64,000 nucleotides of DNA, taken from contig DATNNM010000018.1 of NCBI GenBank assembly GCA_035601835.1, positions 133,890-197,889 of the forward strand, written 5' to 3'. Numbering within the stretch: position 1 is the first letter of the stretch; each line of letters begins with the position of its first letter. The notes under the pieces are model-generated. The model worked only from the letters and a program-made list of their open reading frames with translations. It did no database searches and was not told where the DNA came from. Positions 54,936 to 64,000 of this stretch are shown piece by piece. Both the position numbers and the translations under genes were made by a program. This DNA is from Candidatus Tumulicola sp. (GTDB lineage Bacteria > Vulcanimicrobiota > Vulcanimicrobiia > Eremiobacterales > Eremiobacteraceae).

Positions 54936-55010
54936 GGGCGCGTAGCTCAGGGGTAGAGCACTACATTGACACTGTAGGGGTCAGAGGTTCGAGACCTCTC
55001 GCGCCCACCA
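54936..55010 (+). tRNA. tRNA-Val (anticodon GAC), CCA encoded
   Basis: Manual cloverleaf: GGGCGCG acceptor, anticodon loop UUGACAC, T-arm AGAGG-TTCGAGA-CCTCT. Confidence 0.9.
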
Positions 55011-55265
55011 TCGGAAACCTTGATGCCGCGGACCTCCGTGGCTTTTTCATCCGGTGTGGTACCCTTACCACTATCCGAAAATGCTGACAGATGCTGACCG
55101 AATTTTGACCGCATTGCGGCGTCGACTTTGGTCGCCGCGCTCACGTCTAGCGCCGGCACGACGTGACTGTAAACGTCAAGCGTCATACGAGTTGTGCTGT
55201 GGCCAAGGCGATCCGCAACTACTTTGGGGTGAATGCCTTCGCTCAGCATTTCAGTCGCTGCGGTG
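55011..55265 (-). pseudogene. Tyrosine recombinase C-terminal remnant (copy 1)
   Basis: AATEMLSEGIHPKVVADRLGHSTTRMTLDVYSH (catalytic Tyr region). Homology to copy 2 stops at 55265, where Rhs sequence begins. Confidence 0.75.
55025..55047 (+). terminator. Intrinsic terminator after tRNA-Val(GAC)
   Basis: GCCGCGG-ACCT-CCGTGGC followed by TTTTT. A perfect-stem copy recurs at 60613..60635. Confidence 0.6.
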
Positions 55266-58200
55266 GATGCCAACAATCGGATCAAGACCGTGACGAGCAA
55301 TCCGACCGGCGTCTCACTGGTTTTTACCTACGACAGCGGGACCAACTGCGGCACGGGTGATCTCTGCTCGGCTCAGGAGTCAGACGGAAAGATTTGGAGC
55401 TATCAGTATCAGGATTTGGGGCCAAATCCGGGTGATCAGCACAACCTCACTCGGGTCACCGATCCGCTCGGGCACGTAGTAGAGCAAACCGCTTTCGCGC
55501 AGGTTCTGCAGTTCGGCAACTACTGTTGCATTAGCGTTCCGACGAGCCAGTCGACCGATGGCGGCCAGAATACGCTGACCTTCTCCTACGCCCTTTCGAA
55601 CAATGGGTATAAGACGTGGCTTCATACCACGGTTACCGATGGGCTGAATCGAACGACAGTTTATTATTCCGACAGCATACGCTTTGTGCTCATTAGCGTC
55701 ACGGGGACCATGACCGGCGGTGGCAATCAATCTGTCACCTACAACTACGATCCATACTTCCGCTTGATTTCGCGTGCCGATGGCAATAGCCACGCGACCA
55801 CATATGGCTATGGGCGCGACACAACCGCAAGCGGTCTTGGTTACTCATACATCATCCAAGCCATTCCCGGTCCGAACTCGATCACGGAGCAACTGGCGAG
55901 TGGGCTTAACCGCGTAACGAATATCTCATACTACGCGCTCGGTGACCTGCGACAAGATCTCCCAAACACCATTTCAGTCCCATCCGTCGACACCCCGGGC
56001 AACACGGAAACGATAACGGACACATTCGGCACCAACGGACTACTCACATCGCAAGCGACTCAGGGTTACATCGGGGGTTCCGCAACGACCTACACCACTG
56101 GATTTTCCTACGATACCAAGGGTCGACTTCAGCAGATTACGGGTCCGCGGACCGACGTCGTTCAGCACACCACTGTCGCATACTACCCAGACACTGACTC
56201 CGACATGGCGCGCCGCGGCCAACCCCAAACCATTACCGATGCACTCAGCCATGTCACCACGCTTGCAGCCGATGCAGCTCCTAACAATACGTACAACGTT
56301 TTTGGGAACCCTCTGAGCGTGGCGGACCCCAACGGTGTCGTTACCGACTTGAGCTATGATGCGCGCGGGCGAACGCTTTCCTCAACCATCAAAGGAGTGA
56401 CGGGCGATCCGACAGCGCTGACAACCTCTTACGTTTACGACGCCGCCGGCAGGCTCATCAAAATCATACGACCGTTGCTCAACGGGTTGAGTCTAACCTA
56501 CGATACGAGCAATCGGTTAACGGACATGACCCGGTTCACCGCCAGCACGAATCTCCTGGAGGAACAAATCGTGCTTGGCTACGATGTCATGAGCCAGTTA
56601 ACTTCCCGGCTCGCTCAGGCATGCACGACGCCGGCAGTTTCGTGCAGCGCGTGGAGTACAAAGCAACAAGAGAGCTTCCAGTACGATAGCTTCGGGCGTG
56701 TGAAAGAAATCGACCACCCGGTCCCGAGCGGATCAAAAATACTCTACGGCTACGATTTGGCGGGCAACCTTAACTCAATCCAAGACGAAAATCACAGCAC
56801 GGCGAACTCGACATACAACTATGATTTTGCCAACCGCCTCACCAGCGTCGTGCAGACGTTAGCGGGCGCGCCGGGCAATCAAATTACGACCAGCTTTGGG
56901 TACGACCTACACGACAATCTGAACTCGCTTATCGACCCCAACAGCAATCAGACCACGTACGCCTTCGACGACTTCGATCGGGTAAGGCAGCAGACGTCGC
57001 CGGTGAGCGGAGTCAGCACCTATGCCTATGATCCTGACGACAACCTGCTGACGTTCTCAGACGCCAATGGAGCGATGACCACGCGCAGTTTCGATGCGCT
57101 AGACCGCGTGCTGTCGGCGATGTCTGTGCGCAGCGGGCTCACGACAGAGACCGTGAATTGGGCCTACGACGACGCCACCAGCGGCAACTTCGGCATTGGG
57201 GTCTCAAGAACATCACAGACCCCTCGGGATCGACGACCTATACCTACGACCGGCGCGGGCTGCTCAAAACCGAAGCGCCCACTATCTTGGGCAACGCGTA
57301 TTCTCTGGCCTATGCTTACGACGGCAACGCCAACCGCACGAGCATTACATACCCGGACGCCAACGCCGTCATGTATACCTTTGATTTTGCCGACCGGCCT
57401 CTCTCGGCGACTTTGGGAAGCACGACCTTTGTGTCGAGCGCTACATACGCGCCGTTCGGGCCGCTGACCACCCTTTCGTTCGGGAACGCAAGGACACAGA
57501 CGCTTACTACGACCTCCGCTATCGCCCGACCGAGAACAAGTTGTGTTGCGCGAGACACGGAGCGTCGCTCGCGGACTACACGTATGCCGAGGACGGGGTT
57601 GGCAATATCACGGGAATCACCGACACCGTGAGCACGGGATTCAACCGGACGTTTGCCTACGACGACCTAAATCGGCTGATCACGGCCAATTCTGGCGCCT
57701 CCCTGTGGAATTCCGGCTCCTACACCTACGATTCCATGGGCAACATGAAGACCTTGGGGTTGGGCAGTGCTCGGACGGCGACATTTAGCTATTCAGGCAC
57801 GCTTCCAAAACTAACGTCGGTGACAGAGAACGGCACGCCGCGATCTGTGGCCTACGACGCGGTGGGCAACGAGACGGCTGTGGGCACGGCGACGTATGCC
57901 TATGGCACGCGCAACCAGCTCGAATCGGGCGACGCGCTCACCTACACCTACGACGGTTGGGGGCGGCGGCTTGTGACCTCTGGCAGTTTGGGCACCCGCT
58001 ACTCGTTCTTTACTCCTGGCATGACGTTGCTCTCGGAATCAGCACTGACGATTTCCGGAAGACCTGCGATCGCTTACAAATACATTTGGTTCGCGGGCAG
58101 GCCCATCGCGCAAGTGGACGGCGCGGGCACGCACTGGACCTTCTCCGATCACTTGGGAACGCCTGAGATTCAAACCAATAGTAGCGGCGCGATCGCTTAC

Positions 58201-58848
58201 CAGGCAGAGTACGAACCGTATGGAAAAGTCTTCGCGTTGCGCTCGGGCGACGTGCACCAGCCGCTACGACTGCCAGGCCAAGTGGCGGAACAATTCGACA
58301 CTGGGGCGAATGGTGCGACCGAGCGAAACTATAATGTGTTTCGGTGGTATCGGCCGGGATGGGGTAGGTATTCGCAGGCAGATCCGATTGGGCTAAACGG
58401 CAATTATAATCTTTACCGGTACGTGGAGGACGATCCTGTATCTCTTGATGACCCCTTCGGTCTCAGGCATCTCACGCCGTGCGAAAAGTTAGTGCTCCGT
58501 CCCTACATTCCGCAAATCGACTTGAACAATGCGAATATTCACGAGGGTGAGGTTCCTTGGTGGCTCGGTAAAGACTATGGGGGAGTCACGCTAGAAAATA
58601 ACATCTATTTTCGTCCCGGCGTATATGACCCCACGACCTCTTATGGGTTGGCTCTGCTCGGGCACGAATCGTTTCATGTTGGTCAATACCGAACGGGGAT
58701 GACGCGTGCCGATTATCTGTGGGAAGGATTCTGGCATGGCGGTGGTCAGGAAAATAGGTACGAAAAACCGGCGTACGCCTTGCAACGACGCATCTATTCA
58801 GATTTGGTCAAAGCAGGATTTGAGGGCTGCGAACTATGCGGACGATAA
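55233..58848 (+). pseudogene. Rhs/YD-repeat polymorphic toxin, N-terminally truncated, two frameshifts, DUF4157-like HExxH C-terminal domain
   Basis: YD repeats throughout (YDARGR, YVYDAAGRL, YAYDPDDNL). Reading frame changes at about 57200 and about 57506 relative to copy 2. Core ends at DPVSLDDPFGL (58464). Confidence 0.8.
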
Positions 58849-59312
58849 AATACGCGGCTGCAGCATGTTTGGCAGCGGCGCTGAGTTTCATGGGATGCGC
58901 GCCATCTGTCAACGAGAGTCCTTGGCAGGGGCACGAACCCGTTATTGACGCCTTCTTCCAGCAACCGAGCAAAATTCAAATGTTGACATTCAAGTCCTAT
59001 TCGCTTGACGACCAGTATGCGATATTCTTGTACGGCAACCAAGTCCTCGAACCTCCCGCGATACAGTTAGCGACGGCGTTTGGTGCGGAAGGCCAGCAGG
59101 TTGTCCCATATCTGTCCGCTCATCTTGAGCGCACGTCCCGTGACCTAACAGTCAGGGATTTGGTTTTCGTATTTCGCGAGATGGATCGCCAGAGAGCATA
59201 CAATGTCGGCAAAGACACGACACTGATGAATCTCTTGAGGGAGGCCGTTTCCAAAATGAAGGATCCGGTTTGGAAACGGATTGCTGAGAGAGACTTAGCT
59301 GTTCTCAGATGA
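58836..59312 (+). CDS. Lipoprotein; candidate cognate immunity protein for the DUF4157-like Rhs tip
   Basis: Overlaps the Rhs stop by 13 nt. Lipobox LSFMGC. AT-richer than the Rhs core. Confidence 0.5.
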   Translation: MRTIKYAAAACLAAALSFMGCAPSVNESPWQGHEPVIDAFFQQPSKIQMLTFKSYSLDDQYAIFLYGNQVLEPPAIQLATAFGAEGQQVVPYLSAHLERTSRDLTVRDLVFVFREMDRQRAYNVGKDTTLMNLLREAVSKMKDPVWKRIAERDLAVLR

Positions 59313-59343
59313 GAAAGTTCCATCGCAAAAATTCATCAGGGCG

Positions 59344-59470
59344 GTCTCCGGGTACGACGTCGTGGGTAATCTGCAGACCGTTCAAGACGAGAACCCCTCG
59401 AGCGCCAACACGAAGTACGCGTATGACGCGGCGCATCGTTTGCTCTCAGCCACCCAAACGCTTACCGGCA
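59344..59470 (+). pseudogene. Short Rhs-core fragment (third, diverged copy)
   Basis: VSGYDVVGNLQTVQDENPSSANTKYAYDAAHRLLSATQTLTG parallels YGYDLAGNLNSIQDENHSTANSTYNYDFANRLTSVVQTLAG of the two long copies. Confidence 0.5.
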
Positions 59471-59830
59471 CGTTCAAACTCTTCCTCTCGCCGTATGGCG
59501 GCTTTCGCTCGATGCAGCTTGTCCGTTCCCTAGCCTTCGTTAGCAGTGAGGGCCACCACCGAATTGCGTATGTGTATCATGCCACCTTCGAGAACGGTGA
59601 CTTGCTGTACACCTTTTCCTTTGACAGCGACGGCTTTGTGGGGGGTGTGGCGGCTGGCAGACAAAAGAAGGTCAGTATATTTTTACCGTTAGCGCCTATC
59701 TAAACTCAACACATCGACCCTTTCGGTAACACGGTGTTCAAATCTGTACCGGGCAGTCGAGCTTGTCGCGGGTTTCAACGACCTGCCCTCTTATTGTGAA
59801 TGTTCGCGTTGAAGCGAGAGCGGTAGCACC

Positions 59831-60367
59831 TTGAAGCTGCGAATAGTGGGCCAAACGTCGCTCGGCCTTATGCTGGGGTTCATTCCAGTTGCTCTGTTTT
59901 GGTGGTACTGCACACAGATTAAGGTGCATTATGTCCTAAGTTCGAACATCGAGGGCGAGGGAGTCCTGTGGACATCTTTCTTAATGACGGCGTCATGGAT
60001 GCTGTGTGCCACGCCGGCATATATCGTCGTCTTCAAGCGTCCGGAGAAAGTTTCGCGCTTGGTTGCCCCGTTGCTCTTGGTACTATTGTCGCCCCTATTC
60101 GTGATATCGGCGTTTAACAGCATCGAGCAGATCGTTTGTTATGGAGCCATCGATCACCCGAGGTTGCTCTCTTGGTTTAGAGCGATGTCAGGCGATGTCG
60201 TTTACCTGCTGCTCGCATCTGTGCTAACTTGGCTAATTGGATTCGCGGCGGCAGGTGTTCGCTGGCGAGGTACGCGTGCTGAGCCAGTCCTTGGAATATT
60301 AGCCATGTTGCTAGTCCTCGGCTATGTGATTTTTTGGATCTGGTCCTTGAACCATATCCGTTGGTGA
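59831..60367 (+). CDS. Hypothetical polytopic membrane protein (possible orphan immunity gene)
   Basis: 178-aa ORF with 5 or more hydrophobic helices in AT-richer DNA. Start uncertain (TTG 59831 or ATG 59870). Confidence 0.45.
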   Translation: MKLRIVGQTSLGLMLGFIPVALFWWYCTQIKVHYVLSSNIEGEGVLWTSFLMTASWMLCATPAYIVVFKRPEKVSRLVAPLLLVLLSPLFVISAFNSIEQIVCYGAIDHPRLLSWFRAMSGDVVYLLLASVLTWLIGFAAAGVRWRGTRAEPVLGILAMLLVLGYVIFWIWSLNHIRW

Positions 60368-60553
60368 GGTCACCTTGCCCAAGAGGCGATTTGGCCGGAA
60401 TCGAGGGTTGTAGCATCACAGGAAGGGCGCCCAGATTAACCGAGATAAGTGCTGACCAAATGCTGACCAACAGTCGGATACGGGGGCGAATTCAATAGCA
60501 CTCAACAACACGGGGGCTGCCGCAATCACTCGAAAAGTGTCTTCTTCCGCTCT

Positions 60554-60598
60554 TTGACACTGTAGGGGTCAGAGGTTCGAGACCTCTCGCGCCCACCA
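60554..60598 (+). repeat. 45-bp copy of the tRNA-Val(GAC) 3' part (att repeat)
   Basis: Identical by eye to 54966..55010 (ttgacactgtaggggtcagaggttcgagacctctcgcgcccacca). Confidence 0.85.
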
Positions 60599-60900
60599 TC
60601 AGAAACCATGATGCCGCGGACCTCCGCGGCTTTTTCATCCGCTCCAGCACCCCTATCACTACCCGAAAATGCTGACAGATGCTGACCGAATTTGGACCGC
60701 ATAGCGGTATCCAACTTGAGCGCCGCGCTCGTTTCTAGCGCCGGCACCACGTGACTGTAAACGTCGAGCGTCATGCGCGTTGTACTGTGGCCGAGGCGAT
60801 CTGCTACTACTTTGGGATGAATGCCCTCGCTCAGCATTTCTGTCGCTGCGGTGTGGCGAAGCGAATGTGGGCCGATACTGCCAATGCCAACCCTTACAGC
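60599..60900 (-). pseudogene. Tyrosine recombinase C-terminal remnant (copy 2, longer)
   Basis: GPHSLRHTAATEMLSEGIHPKVVADRLGHSTTRMTLDVYSH (box II plus catalytic Tyr). No N-terminal domain. Confidence 0.75.
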
Positions 60901-60903
60901 TAG

Positions 60904-63900
60904 AACGGGCTCAATCGCTTGACGAATATCTCGTACTACCCGCTCGGTGACCCGCGCCAAGATCTCCCAAACATCATCTCTATCCCGTCCGTCGACACCC
61001 CGGGCAACACGGAAACGATAACGGACACGTTCGGCTCTAACGGACTACTCGCATCGCAAGCGACTCAGGGTTATATCGCGGGTTCCGCCACCGCCTACAC
61101 GACCGGATTTTCCTACGATACCAAGGGTCGGCTTCAGCAGATCACGGGTCCCCGGACCGACGTGGTGCAGCACACGACTGTCGCCTATTACCCAGACAGC
61201 GACACCGACATGGCGCGCCGCGGTCAACCCCAAACAATCACCGATGCACTCAGCCATGTCATCACGCTTGCAGCCGATGCAGCTCCTAACAATACGTACA
61301 GCATTTTTGGGGATCCGCTGAGTGTGGCGGATCCCAACGGCGTCATCACCGACTTGAGCTATGATGCGCGCGGGCGAACGCTTTCCTCAACGATCAAAGG
61401 GGTGACAGGCGATCCGACACCGCTGGCAACCTCCTACGTCTATGACGCCGCGGGCAGGCTCACCAAAATCACACGACCGCTGCTCAACGGGTTGAGCCTG
61501 ACGTACGACACGAGTAATCGGCTGACCGACGTGATACGGTTCACCGCCAGCACGAATCTCCAGGAGGAGCAAATCGTGCTTGGCTACGACGTCACGAGTC
61601 AGTTGACTTCCCAACTCGCTCAAGCATGCACGACGCCAGCGGTTTCGTGCAGCGCGTGGAGTACAAAGCAGCAGGAGACCGTCCAGTATGACAGCTACGG
61701 GCGCGTAAGAGAAATTGACCACCCTTTCCCGAGCGGATCGAAGATCTTGTACGGCTACGATTTGGCCGGGAACCTAAACTCAATCCAAGACGAGAATCAC
61801 AGCACGGCGAACTCGACATACAACTATGATTTTGCCAACCGCCTCACCAGCGTCGTGCAAACGTTGGCAGGTGCGCCGGGCAATCAAATCACGACTAGCT
61901 TCGGGTACGACCTGCACGACAATCTGAACTCGGTTATCGACCCCAACAGCAACCAGACCACGTACGCCTTCGACGACTTTGATCGGGTAAGACAGCAGAC
62001 GTCGCCTGTGAGCGGGGTCAGCAGCTACGCCTACGACCCCGACGACAACCTCCTGACGTTCGCAGACGCCAACGGAGCGATGACCACGCGCACTTTCGAT
62101 GCGCTGGACCGCGTGCTTTCTGCGATGTCTGTGCGCAGCGGTTTCACGACAGAGACCGTGAATTGGGCCTACGACGACGCCACCAACGGCAACTTCGGCA
62201 TCGGGCGCCTCAGGAACATCACCGACCCCTCGGGATCGACAACCTACACCTACGACAGGCGCGGTCTGCTCAAGACCGAAGCGCCCACGATCTTGGGGAA
62301 TGCGTATTCGCAGGCCTATGCGTACGACGGCAACGCCAACCGTACGAGCGTCACCTATCCGGACTCCTCAGTGGTTAATTATACCTTTGATTTCGCGGAC
62401 CGGCCACTATCGGCGACCCTGGGAAGCACGACCTTTGTGTCATCGGCGAGCTACGCGCCGTTTGGGCCGCTGACCAGTCTTTCGTTCGGGAATACAAAAA
62501 CGCAGACGCTCAGCTACGATCTCCGCTATCGCCCGACCGAGAACAAATTGTGTTGCGGGAAACACGGAGTAGCGCTCGCAGACTACACATATGCCGAGGA
62601 CGGGGTTGGCAACATCACGGGCATCACCGACACCGTGAGCACGGGATTCAACCGGACGTTTGGCTATGACGACCTCAATCGCTTGATTACCGCCAATACA
62701 GGCGCTTCGCTGTGGGTCACGGGCTCATACACTTATGACTCCATGGGCAACATGAAGACCTTGGGGCTGGGCGGTTCTCGGACTGCGTCATTCAGCTACT
62801 CAGGAACACTTCCAAGACTCACGTCCGTGACGGAGAACGGCACGCCGCGATCTGTGGCCTACGACGCGGCGGGCAACGAGAGCAACGTGGGCACGGCCAC
62901 GTACGGCTACGGCACGCGCAACTTGCTCGAATCGGGCGACACGCTCACCTACACCTACGATGGCTGGGGGCGGCGTCTTGTGACCTCTGGCAGTCAGGGC
63001 ACCCGCTACTCGTTCTTTAGTCCTGCCACGGCGCTGCTCTCGGAATCGGCGCTGACCATGTCCGGAAGACCTGCTATCGCTTACAAATACATTTGGTTCG
63101 CGGGCAGACCCATCGCGCAAGTGGACGGCGCGGGCACGCACTGGGCCTTTGCCGATCACTTGGGAACGCCGGAGATTCAAACCAATACCAGCGGCACGAT
63201 CACTTACCAAGCAGAGTACGAGCCGTACGGAAGAATCTTTTCGTTGCGCTCGAGCGACGTGCACCAGCCGCTTCGACTGCCGGGCCAGGTGGCGGAGCAA
63301 TTCGACACTGGGGCCAATGGCGCGACGGAGCGTTCATACAACAATTTCCGCTGGTATCGGCCGGGCTGGGGAAGGTATTCTGAGGCGGATCCGCTTGGGT
63401 TGGTCGCTGGAGCGAACGGATATCCTTACGTTTTGGATAATCCCGGCGGGAGAATCGACCCTCTGGGGTTGCACCCCGGACCGAGTATTACGGCGGTGGG
63501 CTATTTCCAGTATGCCCTCGATCCCGTCTACAGGCAGCAGTACAACGACTTGCTACTTGGGGCGGGTATTGTTGGGCTAAATGTGGTTCCCGTCGTTGGT
63601 GAGGTCTTGGATGTCGTTGCCGCGGCCCGGATCGCCGGCCTGGGCGCAGCACTCCTTCGTTTGGAACAATCGGCGCAAGAGGAAGAACCTGGTCCGCTGT
63701 GTCCGAACTCTCCAATTGTAATCGGCGAAAACATGAATCGCGTCCGTGCGGCCGCCGCCGAATTAGGAGCTAGGACCTACTCGGGATTCCCAAACGCAGA
63801 GGGTCTAGCCGGTTCAAACCTTGCGGAGGCGCAACTTTCCCATAACGCCGAGTGGCTTCTTGGAGAACTTCGGGGAGGAAGCACTGTAATAGACATCGGG

Positions 63901-64000
63901 CCGGACATCCGCGGGTTAAATTACCCGGGAATAACCAGTGACAGTTACAGTTTGGAGCTGCAGCTCCTCGAGCAGTTTCCCAACACGCTAATGTTTGGGG
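60904..64000 (+). CDS. Rhs/YD-repeat polymorphic toxin cassette, 5'-truncated, open to the window end, distinct C-terminal domain
   Basis: Frame with codons starting at 60904, 60907 and so on, open from the TAG at 60901 to 64000. The track lists no stop-bounded ORF in this frame, and a hand translation of 63472..64000 found no stop. Collinear with copy 1 from about 55902. Core ends at GRIDPLGL (63471). Confidence 0.7.

Follow-up and report, generated by a model that had tools for sequence, protein, structure and literature searches.

A PVC-metallopeptidase placed as a C-terminal toxin after RHS repeats was reported from Pedosphaera parvula by Zhang et al. in 2012, who also found the domain on a baseplate protein belonging to a type VI secretion system, or T6SS (PMC3482391). 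The defining signature of this family is HExxHxxQ...E, and its layout consists of three strands, a His pair on one helix and a Glu on a later helix (PMC3482391). For DUF4157 forms borne on VgrG, PAAR or cargo proteins, a periplasmic effector/immunity logic was described by Wood et al. in 2019 (PMC6899460). The Tpe/Tpi pairs are VgrG2b-Cter (6H56) with PA0261 of P. aeruginosa and Tpe1 with Tpi1 of A. baylyi; both toxins are harmless in the cytoplasm and lytic in the periplasm, depend on the catalytic Glu, are proposed to release lipoproteins from membranes, and are neutralised via complex formation with periplasmic, lipoprotein or membrane-anchored immunity proteins (PMC6899460). Here we analyze a 64,000-nt window of a 'Candidatus Tumulicola' genome (the whole stretch of DNA presented, contig DATNNM010000018.1), in which positions 58465-59312 are likely to be an orphan Rhs toxin/immunity cassette that joins a DUF4157 zinc metallopeptidase to a lipoprotein immunity protein behind a dead Rhs carrier. 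Coordinates are positions within the window, while L-numbers (L001 and so on) denote the loci analyzed and P-numbers denote proteins.

The cassette begins where the Rhs core ends. In the frame that stops at 58848, DPIGL occupies 58381-58395 and DDPVSLDDPFGL follows at 58450-58464; together they form the core-end motif DPIGL-x18-DPFGL (58381..58464, plus strand), assigned from the sequence and TIGR03696 as the aspartyl autoprotease region. TIGR03696 (Rhs_assc_core) matches with 57.3 bits over residues 224-308 of a 435-aa open reading frame (ORF) and ends exactly at DPFGL, and the Pfam models RHS_repeat, RHS and TEN_YD-shell match the core before the tip. The arrangement of an Rhs polymorphic toxin, in which YD/RHS repeats and a core ending in DPxGL precede the tip, is thus present. 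Directly 3' of DPFGL, RHLTPCEK... opens at 58465 a tip of 127 aa (58465..58848, plus strand), which Pfam, homologues and an AlphaFold2 (AF2) model identify as a gluzincin of the DUF4157/PVC-metallopeptidase family; a longer reading of the same frame runs YSQADPIGLNGNYNLYRYVEDDPVSLDDPFGL, then the tip sequence RHLTPCEKLVLRPYIPQIDLNNANIHEGEVPWWLGKDYGGVTLENNIYFRPGVYDPTTSYGLALLGHESFHVGQYRTGMTRADYLWEGFWHGGGQENRYEKPAYALQRRIYSDLVKAGFEGCELCGR. A 158-aa ORF follows on the plus strand (58836..59312) and is the predicted cognate immunity protein, as judged from the ORF itself, its homologues downstream of other tips, its lipobox and an AF2 model. Its ATG at 58836 overlaps by 13 nt with the end of the tip gene, the stop codon of which is TAA at 58846-58848. 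The earlier note on this DNA had proposed each of these features, namely the DPFGL core end with its 127-residue tip, the 13-nt overlap and an AT-richer composition of both genes relative to the core, and all of them are confirmed; G+C is 0.50-0.55 over the tip and immunity genes, ~0.58-0.60 in the core, and ~0.64 in the flanking chromosome.

Membership of the tip in the DUF4157 family is established. PF13699 (DUF4157, now renamed 'eCIS core domain' or eCIS_core, after the extracellular contractile injection system) matches the 127 residues at E=5.9e-8 with 33.2 bits against a gathering score of 22, in agreement with the assignment suggested in the earlier note. A search of 5.8 billion proteins returned 49 tip relatives at 45-67% identity, all with PF13699, and alignments of relatives reach positions 2-78 of the model. 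The HExxH motif, likewise predicted, is present as HESFH at 58663-58677, and H67, E68, H71, V72, G73, Q74, Y75 and E100 are invariant in an alignment of 44 homologues. The last of these, at 58762-58764, is the candidate third zinc ligand. Together with E100, the string HESFHVGQ (tip residues 67-74) satisfies the HExxHxxQ...E signature. The same Rhs end lies upstream of the domain in 18 of the 44 tip homologues. An AF2 model of the tip built on the homologue alignment (predicted local distance difference test, pLDDT, 92; predicted template modeling score, pTM, 0.87) has strands at 24-27, 40-43 and 46-49, carries HExxH on a long helix (59-76), and places E100 at the start of a helix spanning 100-116. 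This order of strands and helices is the layout described for the family (PMC3482391) and was counted in favor of membership. The tip therefore resembles the RHS-linked domain of Zhang et al. in family, in HExxHxxQ...E signature and in being the last domain after RHS repeats; their catalogue gives no immunity protein (PMC3482391), whereas a conserved lipoprotein partner is identified here. Other peptidase-toxin families of Pfam (Tox-MPTase and the like) had no match in the tip at E<=1, and NCBIfam had none in either the tip or the immunity protein.

Membership of the tip in the specific VgrG2b/Tpe1 branch is not established. The tip-family profile reached VgrG2b-Cter 6H56 at a sub-threshold E=0.52, with a colinear alignment over 87 positions that includes HExxH and extends from an 'R-x-L-[ST]-x-x-E' start via 'IYF' to 'HE[LM]xHVxQ'. 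This match disappears when the profile is trimmed, and 6H56 is not in the top 50 of Foldseek. Against the PDB, the tip model gave no significant Foldseek match; the best matches were all small zinc peptidases (proabylysin 4JIU, selecase 4QHF, PprI, deuterolysin and PPEP-3), but they were weak, with E ~0.2-0.7 and a template modeling (TM) score of ~0.4. The likeness to the Tpe/Tpi pairs lies in a gluzincin that is annotated as DUF4157 and has a His pair with a Glu downstream, and in a small downstream immunity gene whose product faces the periplasm; in the Tpe/Tpi system, the immunity protein is a lipoprotein in Enterobacteriaceae and the toxin domain is modular across carriers (PMC6899460). 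The differences are that the window carrier is an Rhs protein and not a VgrG, PAAR or cargo protein, that the third ligand is spaced by 29 residues in the window tip versus 44 in Tpe/Tpi, and that the T6SS association of those pairs is missing, with no T6SS or eCIS genes found in the 10-kb flanks or among the 30 large ORFs of the window. A further comparison is offered by SED_RS06335 of Salmonella Dublin (PMC13556075), an antibacterial protein that, like the window locus, couples an Rhs carrier to a C-terminal HExxH peptidase. Unlike the window tip, its peptidase is M91/NleD-like, is encoded with a T6SS, and is experimentally active (PMC13556075).

The second gene of the cassette encodes a predicted lipoprotein whose N-terminus reads MRTIKYAAAACLAAALSFMGC, with the lipobox Cys21 at 58896-58898. 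A PROSITE-PS51257-type pattern was applied, comprising a basic N-terminus, a hydrophobic stretch, and the lipobox [LIVMFWSTAG](2)-[LIVMFYSTAGCQ]-[AGS]-C with the Cys at 15-35; the protein fits it as MRTIK-YAAAACLAAAL-SFMG-C21, where Cys21 is the predicted site of lipidation, and the lipobox of the earlier note is thereby upheld. A strict lipobox occurs in 20 of 26 homologues from genome loci and in 73 of 118 full-length representatives, and in most of the non-strict homologues the signal peptide ends in a near-lipobox Cys. A single-sequence word-index search had returned the 158-aa ORF alone, but the impression of an ORFan was rejected when tip neighborhoods, a profile and phmmer revealed a large family. 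At E<=1e-3 an exhaustive phmmer search yielded 508 cluster representatives, and at the stricter E<=1e-10 it yielded 242; their usual length is 145-175 aa. Twelve members of this family had no match in Pfam, and PDB sequence and profile searches with the immunity protein returned nothing significant. The AF2 model (pLDDT 89) shows the mature part as an all-alpha helical repeat, for which Foldseek found only weak HEAT-like or designed-repeat matches in the PDB, none of them significant. Apart from the lipobox Cys, the family has no conserved cysteine, whereas relatives of PA0261 use conserved cysteines and DsbA; in this description of its Cys content, rather than by sequence comparison, the window immunity family looks distinct from that of PA0261. 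Three proteins, P0062 (472 aa), P0063 (295 aa) and P0065 (302 aa), contain two or three tandem immunity domains each, which suggests fused immunity arrays.

Linkage of the two genes across genomes was evaluated by a tip-profile scan in which each GTDB species was represented by one genome; it yielded 49 loci, the 36 closest of which were analyzed. A DPxGL Rhs end lies directly 5' of the tip in 20 of the 36, and in 19 of these the contig continues. An immunity homologue stands immediately 3' of the tip in all of the evaluable Rhs-linked genome loci (19/19). Five or six further loci combine an immunity gene with a tip on a non-Rhs protein, and the gene is absent beside 10 stand-alone or differently built tip relatives. 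Metagenome loci behave in the same way, in that L004, L005/L006, L009, L010 and L013 each have an immunity homologue directly 3', overlapping the tip gene by 1-13 nt. These homologues are 34-37% identical to the window ORF and share the motifs FF..P, QY.IF.YGN...PP, T.RD...VF.EM and MKD..W; L007 retains only a C-terminal fragment of one. The proposal that the downstream ORF is an immunity candidate gains support from the 19 genome loci and the five metagenome loci alike. Because the homologue is found downstream in 19/19 loci and nearly all copies carry a lipobox, these comparisons provide strong evidence that the tip and the lipoprotein are a genuine toxin/immunity pair in which the immunity protein is located in the envelope.

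The pair is widespread among soil bacteria, and tip loci were found in Dyella, Rhodanobacter, Dokdonella, Massilia, Edaphobacter and other Acidobacteriota, in delta-proteobacterial, Fibrobacteres, Elusimicrobia and Rickettsiales metagenome-assembled genomes (MAGs), and in 'Candidatus Tumulicola' here. Intact carriers are represented by a Dokdonella gene whose open frame spans 1501 aa or more, by a 1404-aa protein of Edaphobacter aggregans DSM 19364 (L022 6170-10381) and by a teneurin-like protein of Fibrobacteres (2294 aa). The tips that follow an Rhs end usually have Cys6 and all have a C-terminal CxxC, CxC or CC; Cys6 and a C-terminal CxxC are present in the window tip, and most stand-alone relatives are without these cysteines. 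Stand-alone relatives of ~120-146 aa (P0034, P0024 and P0040 among the proteins; loci L011, L012, L032-L036 and L044) occur in housekeeping neighborhoods with no Rhs end and no lipoprotein gene, and mostly without Cys6 and the paired C-terminal cysteines. A DUF4157-type domain thus need not be the tip of a polymorphic toxin. In a Candidatus Eisenbacteria MAG (L043 9290-11845), a tip relative lies in the middle of an 852-aa open frame and is followed by Peptidase_M48, with no adjacent immunity gene.

A number of observations weigh against reading the cassette as an Rhs-delivered metallopeptidase with its immunity protein. The PF13699 local alignment covers profile positions 40-78 of 79, which is half of the model, and every match of the tip to a solved zincin, in sequence or in structure, is below significance. 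In place of the HEL[VT]H that all relatives share, the tip has HESFH, and Gly stands where a Tyr is near-invariant (Y94G); this change and L69S, which gives HESFH, are the positions at which it departs from the family consensus (2/43 strongly conserved columns), and they could lower its activity. The conserved tip cysteines could be ligands of a second metal instead of periplasmic disulfides. The intact carriers have DUF6531 or teneurin-like N-termini, and none has PAAR or VgrG. Finally, the immunity protein has no detectable relation to any known immunity family.

The carrier itself is dead. Copy 1 of the Rhs/YD-repeat core (55266..58464, plus strand), delimited from frame maps, copy alignment and RHS hits, is truncated at its 5' end and lacks an N-terminal delivery domain, so that the single intact frame with an N-terminal delivery/plug region is missing. 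Its reading frame shifts from ORF 55233-57467 to 57158-57631 and then to 57541-58848, and alignment with a second copy, described below, places two 1-nt deletions in copy 1, at 57200/57201 and 57506/57507. The region is identical in assemblies from three other samples, and independent assemblies (L001, L002; ENA ERZ27313981, JGI 3300001593) are 100% identical across the deletion sites, and hence the deletions are real; sequencing error was rejected for this reason and because neither site has a long homopolymer. No full-length rhs was found within 10 kb on either side. The window copy thus differs from the RHS-linked example of Zhang et al. in being on a truncated, frameshifted orphan, on which the earlier note was silent; this was an omission and not an error. 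An orphan carrier that is truncated and has two frameshifts very probably leaves the toxin undeployed in this genome, where it would be a silent reserve or relic. The likeliest present role of the toxin is none, and the lipoprotein possibly serves as an orphan immunity protein.

The whole cassette, the 158-aa ORF included, might be evolutionary debris with no present function, an explanation that we consider doubtful. It fits the truncated and frameshifted carrier, the integrase, tRNA and Rhs scraps that litter the island, and the departures of HESFH and Y94G from the family consensus. It also fits the lack of a promoter-like site upstream; a promoter and terminator scan of 57000-60600 was uninformative, with sites no more numerous than in shuffled sequence. 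However, both ORFs are full-length and free of stops, and their consensus deviations (2/43 columns in the tip, 0/24 strongly conserved columns in the immunity protein) are no greater than those of other family members, so that, judged from these sequences, the cassette itself does not appear decayed. In addition, orphan immunity genes are kept and are protective in recombinase-associated orphan immunity arrays (rAID systems; PMC12247911). We favor an orphan cassette whose carrier has died around it.

In an intact system of this type, the 127-aa gluzincin would be housed inside the YD-repeat shell of the Rhs protein. From established Rhs biology, the core-end aspartyl autoprotease would cut after the Leu at 58462-58464 (DPFGL) and free the tip, which would then be delivered to a competing diderm bacterium and act in its periplasm on an envelope protein substrate. 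The immunity gene would be translationally coupled to the toxin gene, and its product, a lipid-anchored, periplasm-facing helical-repeat protein, would bind the peptidase and shield the producer and its kin. If expressed here, the intact immunity gene may guard against neighbors that fire an active version. A periplasmic proteolytic toxin is the most likely mechanism, as we infer from the envelope-anchored immunity protein, the diderm host (a TonB-dependent receptor and an AcrB-type pump are present), the tip cysteines, and the precedent of VgrG2b-Cter and Tpe1.

Immunity proteins are normally located where the toxin acts, and most studied Rhs tips are cytoplasmic nucleases, ADP-ribosyltransferases or deaminases. 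The latter point, together with stand-alone relatives that occur without signal peptides in housekeeping contexts (L011, L012), would suit a real pair whose toxin is active in the cytoplasm or attacks the membrane from within, with a lipoprotein that protects in some other way, such as by blocking entry. We regard such an arrangement as unlikely, given that the immunity family is almost uniformly lipoprotein or exported, that the conserved cysteines are on Rhs-linked tips and not on stand-alone ones, and that the only characterized DUF4157 toxins are toxic in the periplasm and harmless in the cytoplasm. A periplasmic site of action thus remains our preferred explanation.

Within eCIS loci, a DUF4157 'core' domain of the same Pfam family, also with HExxH, is found N-terminal to or beside diverse toxins in eCIS operons, usually with no immunity gene (Geller et al. 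2021, PMC8213781), whereas the window tip is C-terminal, Rhs-linked and immunity-linked, with no eCIS genes. A rival view, in which the tip is no toxin but a peptidase for processing ('releasing') or a marker for eCIS loading and has nothing to do with the lipoprotein, was rejected as very improbable. Pfam's current name for PF13699 and the view of the N-terminal eCIS form as a marker or maturation domain (PMC8213781; PMC3482391) speak for it. Against it, the domain here closes the protein behind the Rhs cleavage motif and leaves no downstream part to be released, neither the window nor its flanks yielded eCIS or T6SS genes, Rhs-linked loci show strict linkage to a conserved downstream lipoprotein, and C-terminal RHS-linked versions were explicitly set apart as toxins by Zhang et al. 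(PMC3482391).

Orphan Rhs cassettes form an island beside a tRNA gene here, and the cassette is one of them. ARAGORN placed a tRNA-Val(GAC) at 54936..55010 on the plus strand, which forms the left boundary of the Rhs-fragment island, and the 3' 45 nt of this tRNA are repeated perfectly (45/45) at 60554-60598. Next to the tRNA, on the minus strand at 55011..55265, is the C-terminal remnant of a tyrosine integrase, recognized from ORF translations and the repeat; it forms a fusion with the truncated Rhs core. Another integrase remnant of somewhat greater length (~60599-60906; PF00589, E=3.2e-11) lies on the strand opposite to Rhs within a repeat that is 89% identical. Each Rhs copy starts abruptly at an integrase remnant, and each remnant adjoins tRNA-Val or its 45-nt copy. 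The remnants comprise the C-terminal ~60-80 codons and stand head-to-head with the 5'-truncated Rhs core, although the junctions differ (55265/55266 versus 60853-60906). The repeat of the tRNA 3' end indicates an att-type duplication, in which two related islands integrated in tandem.

The second Rhs fragment, copy 2, was delimited by frame maps at 60904-64000 and ends 14 nt past the window (L001 12084-15179). Over 2.5 kb (60907-63399) it is 88% identical to copy 1. It has an uninterrupted frame of >1030 aa and no N-terminal delivery region, and after DPLGL it continues, from about 63490, into a different C-terminal tip that has no Pfam match. Directly after the immunity gene, at 59350..59469 on the plus strand, the frame map contains a 40-aa scrap of Rhs core (GYDVVGNLQTVQDENPSSANTKYAYDAAHRLLSATQTLTG) with a below-threshold RHS_repeat match (E=6e-4), which is debris of earlier recombination. 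Two other ORFs lie between the copies, of which 59362-59703 is a DUF3887-like fragment at a sub-threshold score, and 59831-60367 encodes 178 aa with multiple transmembrane segments and no Pfam match and may have conferred immunity as part of a cassette since lost. Within a 433-aa ORF ~4.8 kb past the end of the window (L001 18802-19606) lies a third Rhs core-end fragment, 85% identical to window positions 62594-63398; the orphan array therefore extends downstream.

With its partial core, tip and immunity gene, its missing functional 5' part and its tandem fragments, the window resembles orphan Rhs/CDI (contact-dependent growth inhibition) cassettes. The likeness to rAID (Ross et al. 2019, as presented in PMC12247911) lies in the tyrosine recombinase genes beside cassettes in related loci. 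The rAID systems were defined in Bacteroidales and, in that same account, keep immunity genes usually without intact toxin tips (PMC12247911). In contrast to rAID and orphan arrays, the window has no recombinase sequences other than remnants, now dead, of an integrase that belongs to another lineage and targets tRNA, and no parent full-length rhs is nearby.

In four independent loci (L005/L006, L009, L013 and L004), the cassette, here meaning ~20-60 codons of rhs core end with the DUF4157 tip and the lipoprotein, is directly downstream of a tyrosine integrase gene, and three of the four have a DnaG-type primase and a helix-turn-helix (HTH) regulator ahead of the integrase. Small elements of this kind (L009, L005/L006, L013) consist of the HTH regulator, the DnaG-type primase, the tyrosine integrase, ~20-40 codons of rhs core end, the tip, the lipoprotein, and cargo such as HicAB or a methylase. 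L009 (JGI 3300072660) is a contig of 6,949 bp whose ends overlap exactly over 127 bp, and it therefore assembles into a 6.8-kb circle; an element of the L009 type may have its attachment site in the rhs core end. L004, L005 and L009 have mutually orthologous integrases (44-49% identity). The same integrase lineage was found in the Acidobacteriota loci L004, L016, L023 and L026 beside orphan-cassette arrays that converge on full-length rhs, the array integrases being 83-90% identical to that of L004. Within L004 1-8476, core ends on the two strands are connected by inverted repeats that are 56-101 nt long and 73-91% complementary, and this layout resembles rAID or a shufflon.

These loci suggest, without proving, that integrases mobilize or shuffle Rhs tips. 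No tRNA-derived attachment sites or tRNA genes were found in the integrase-linked loci. The integrase remnant of the window has only a generic 40% match over 40-49 residues to the integrases of L004, L005 and L009, and its placement in the same lineage was rejected; since the lineages differ, integrase shuffling does not directly explain the window. As a combined and rather improbable reading, the ~155-aa lipoproteins would constitute an undescribed immunity family dedicated to Rhs-delivered DUF4157 peptidases, and the cassette would be spread by primase-integrase elements that swap tips. As part of it, the conserved rhs 3' core end could act as the attachment site, with site-specific integration or inversion instead of homologous recombination.

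Apart from a possible orphan immunity, the locus is a relic that matters little to the genome of the window. For the family, the Rhs-linked branch of DUF4157 gains a cognate, envelope-anchored immunity family that counts 508 cluster representatives and lacks a Pfam model. The use of DUF4157 as a C-terminal toxin of Rhs proteins was already known (2012), as was the periplasmic effector/immunity logic (2019). What is newly added is the widespread unnamed partner family, its near-universal lipoprotein nature, its taxonomic reach, and the intact carriers of DUF6531 or teneurin-like type. The idea of a periplasmic, 'Tpe-like' toxin is thereby extended from proteobacterial T6SS spikes to Rhs/teneurin-like carriers in Acidobacteriota, Xanthomonadales, Fibrobacteres, Elusimicrobia and Eremiobacterota. 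Among these, Edaphobacter aggregans DSM 19364 is a cultured strain with an intact gene and is suited to seeking the substrate of the peptidase.

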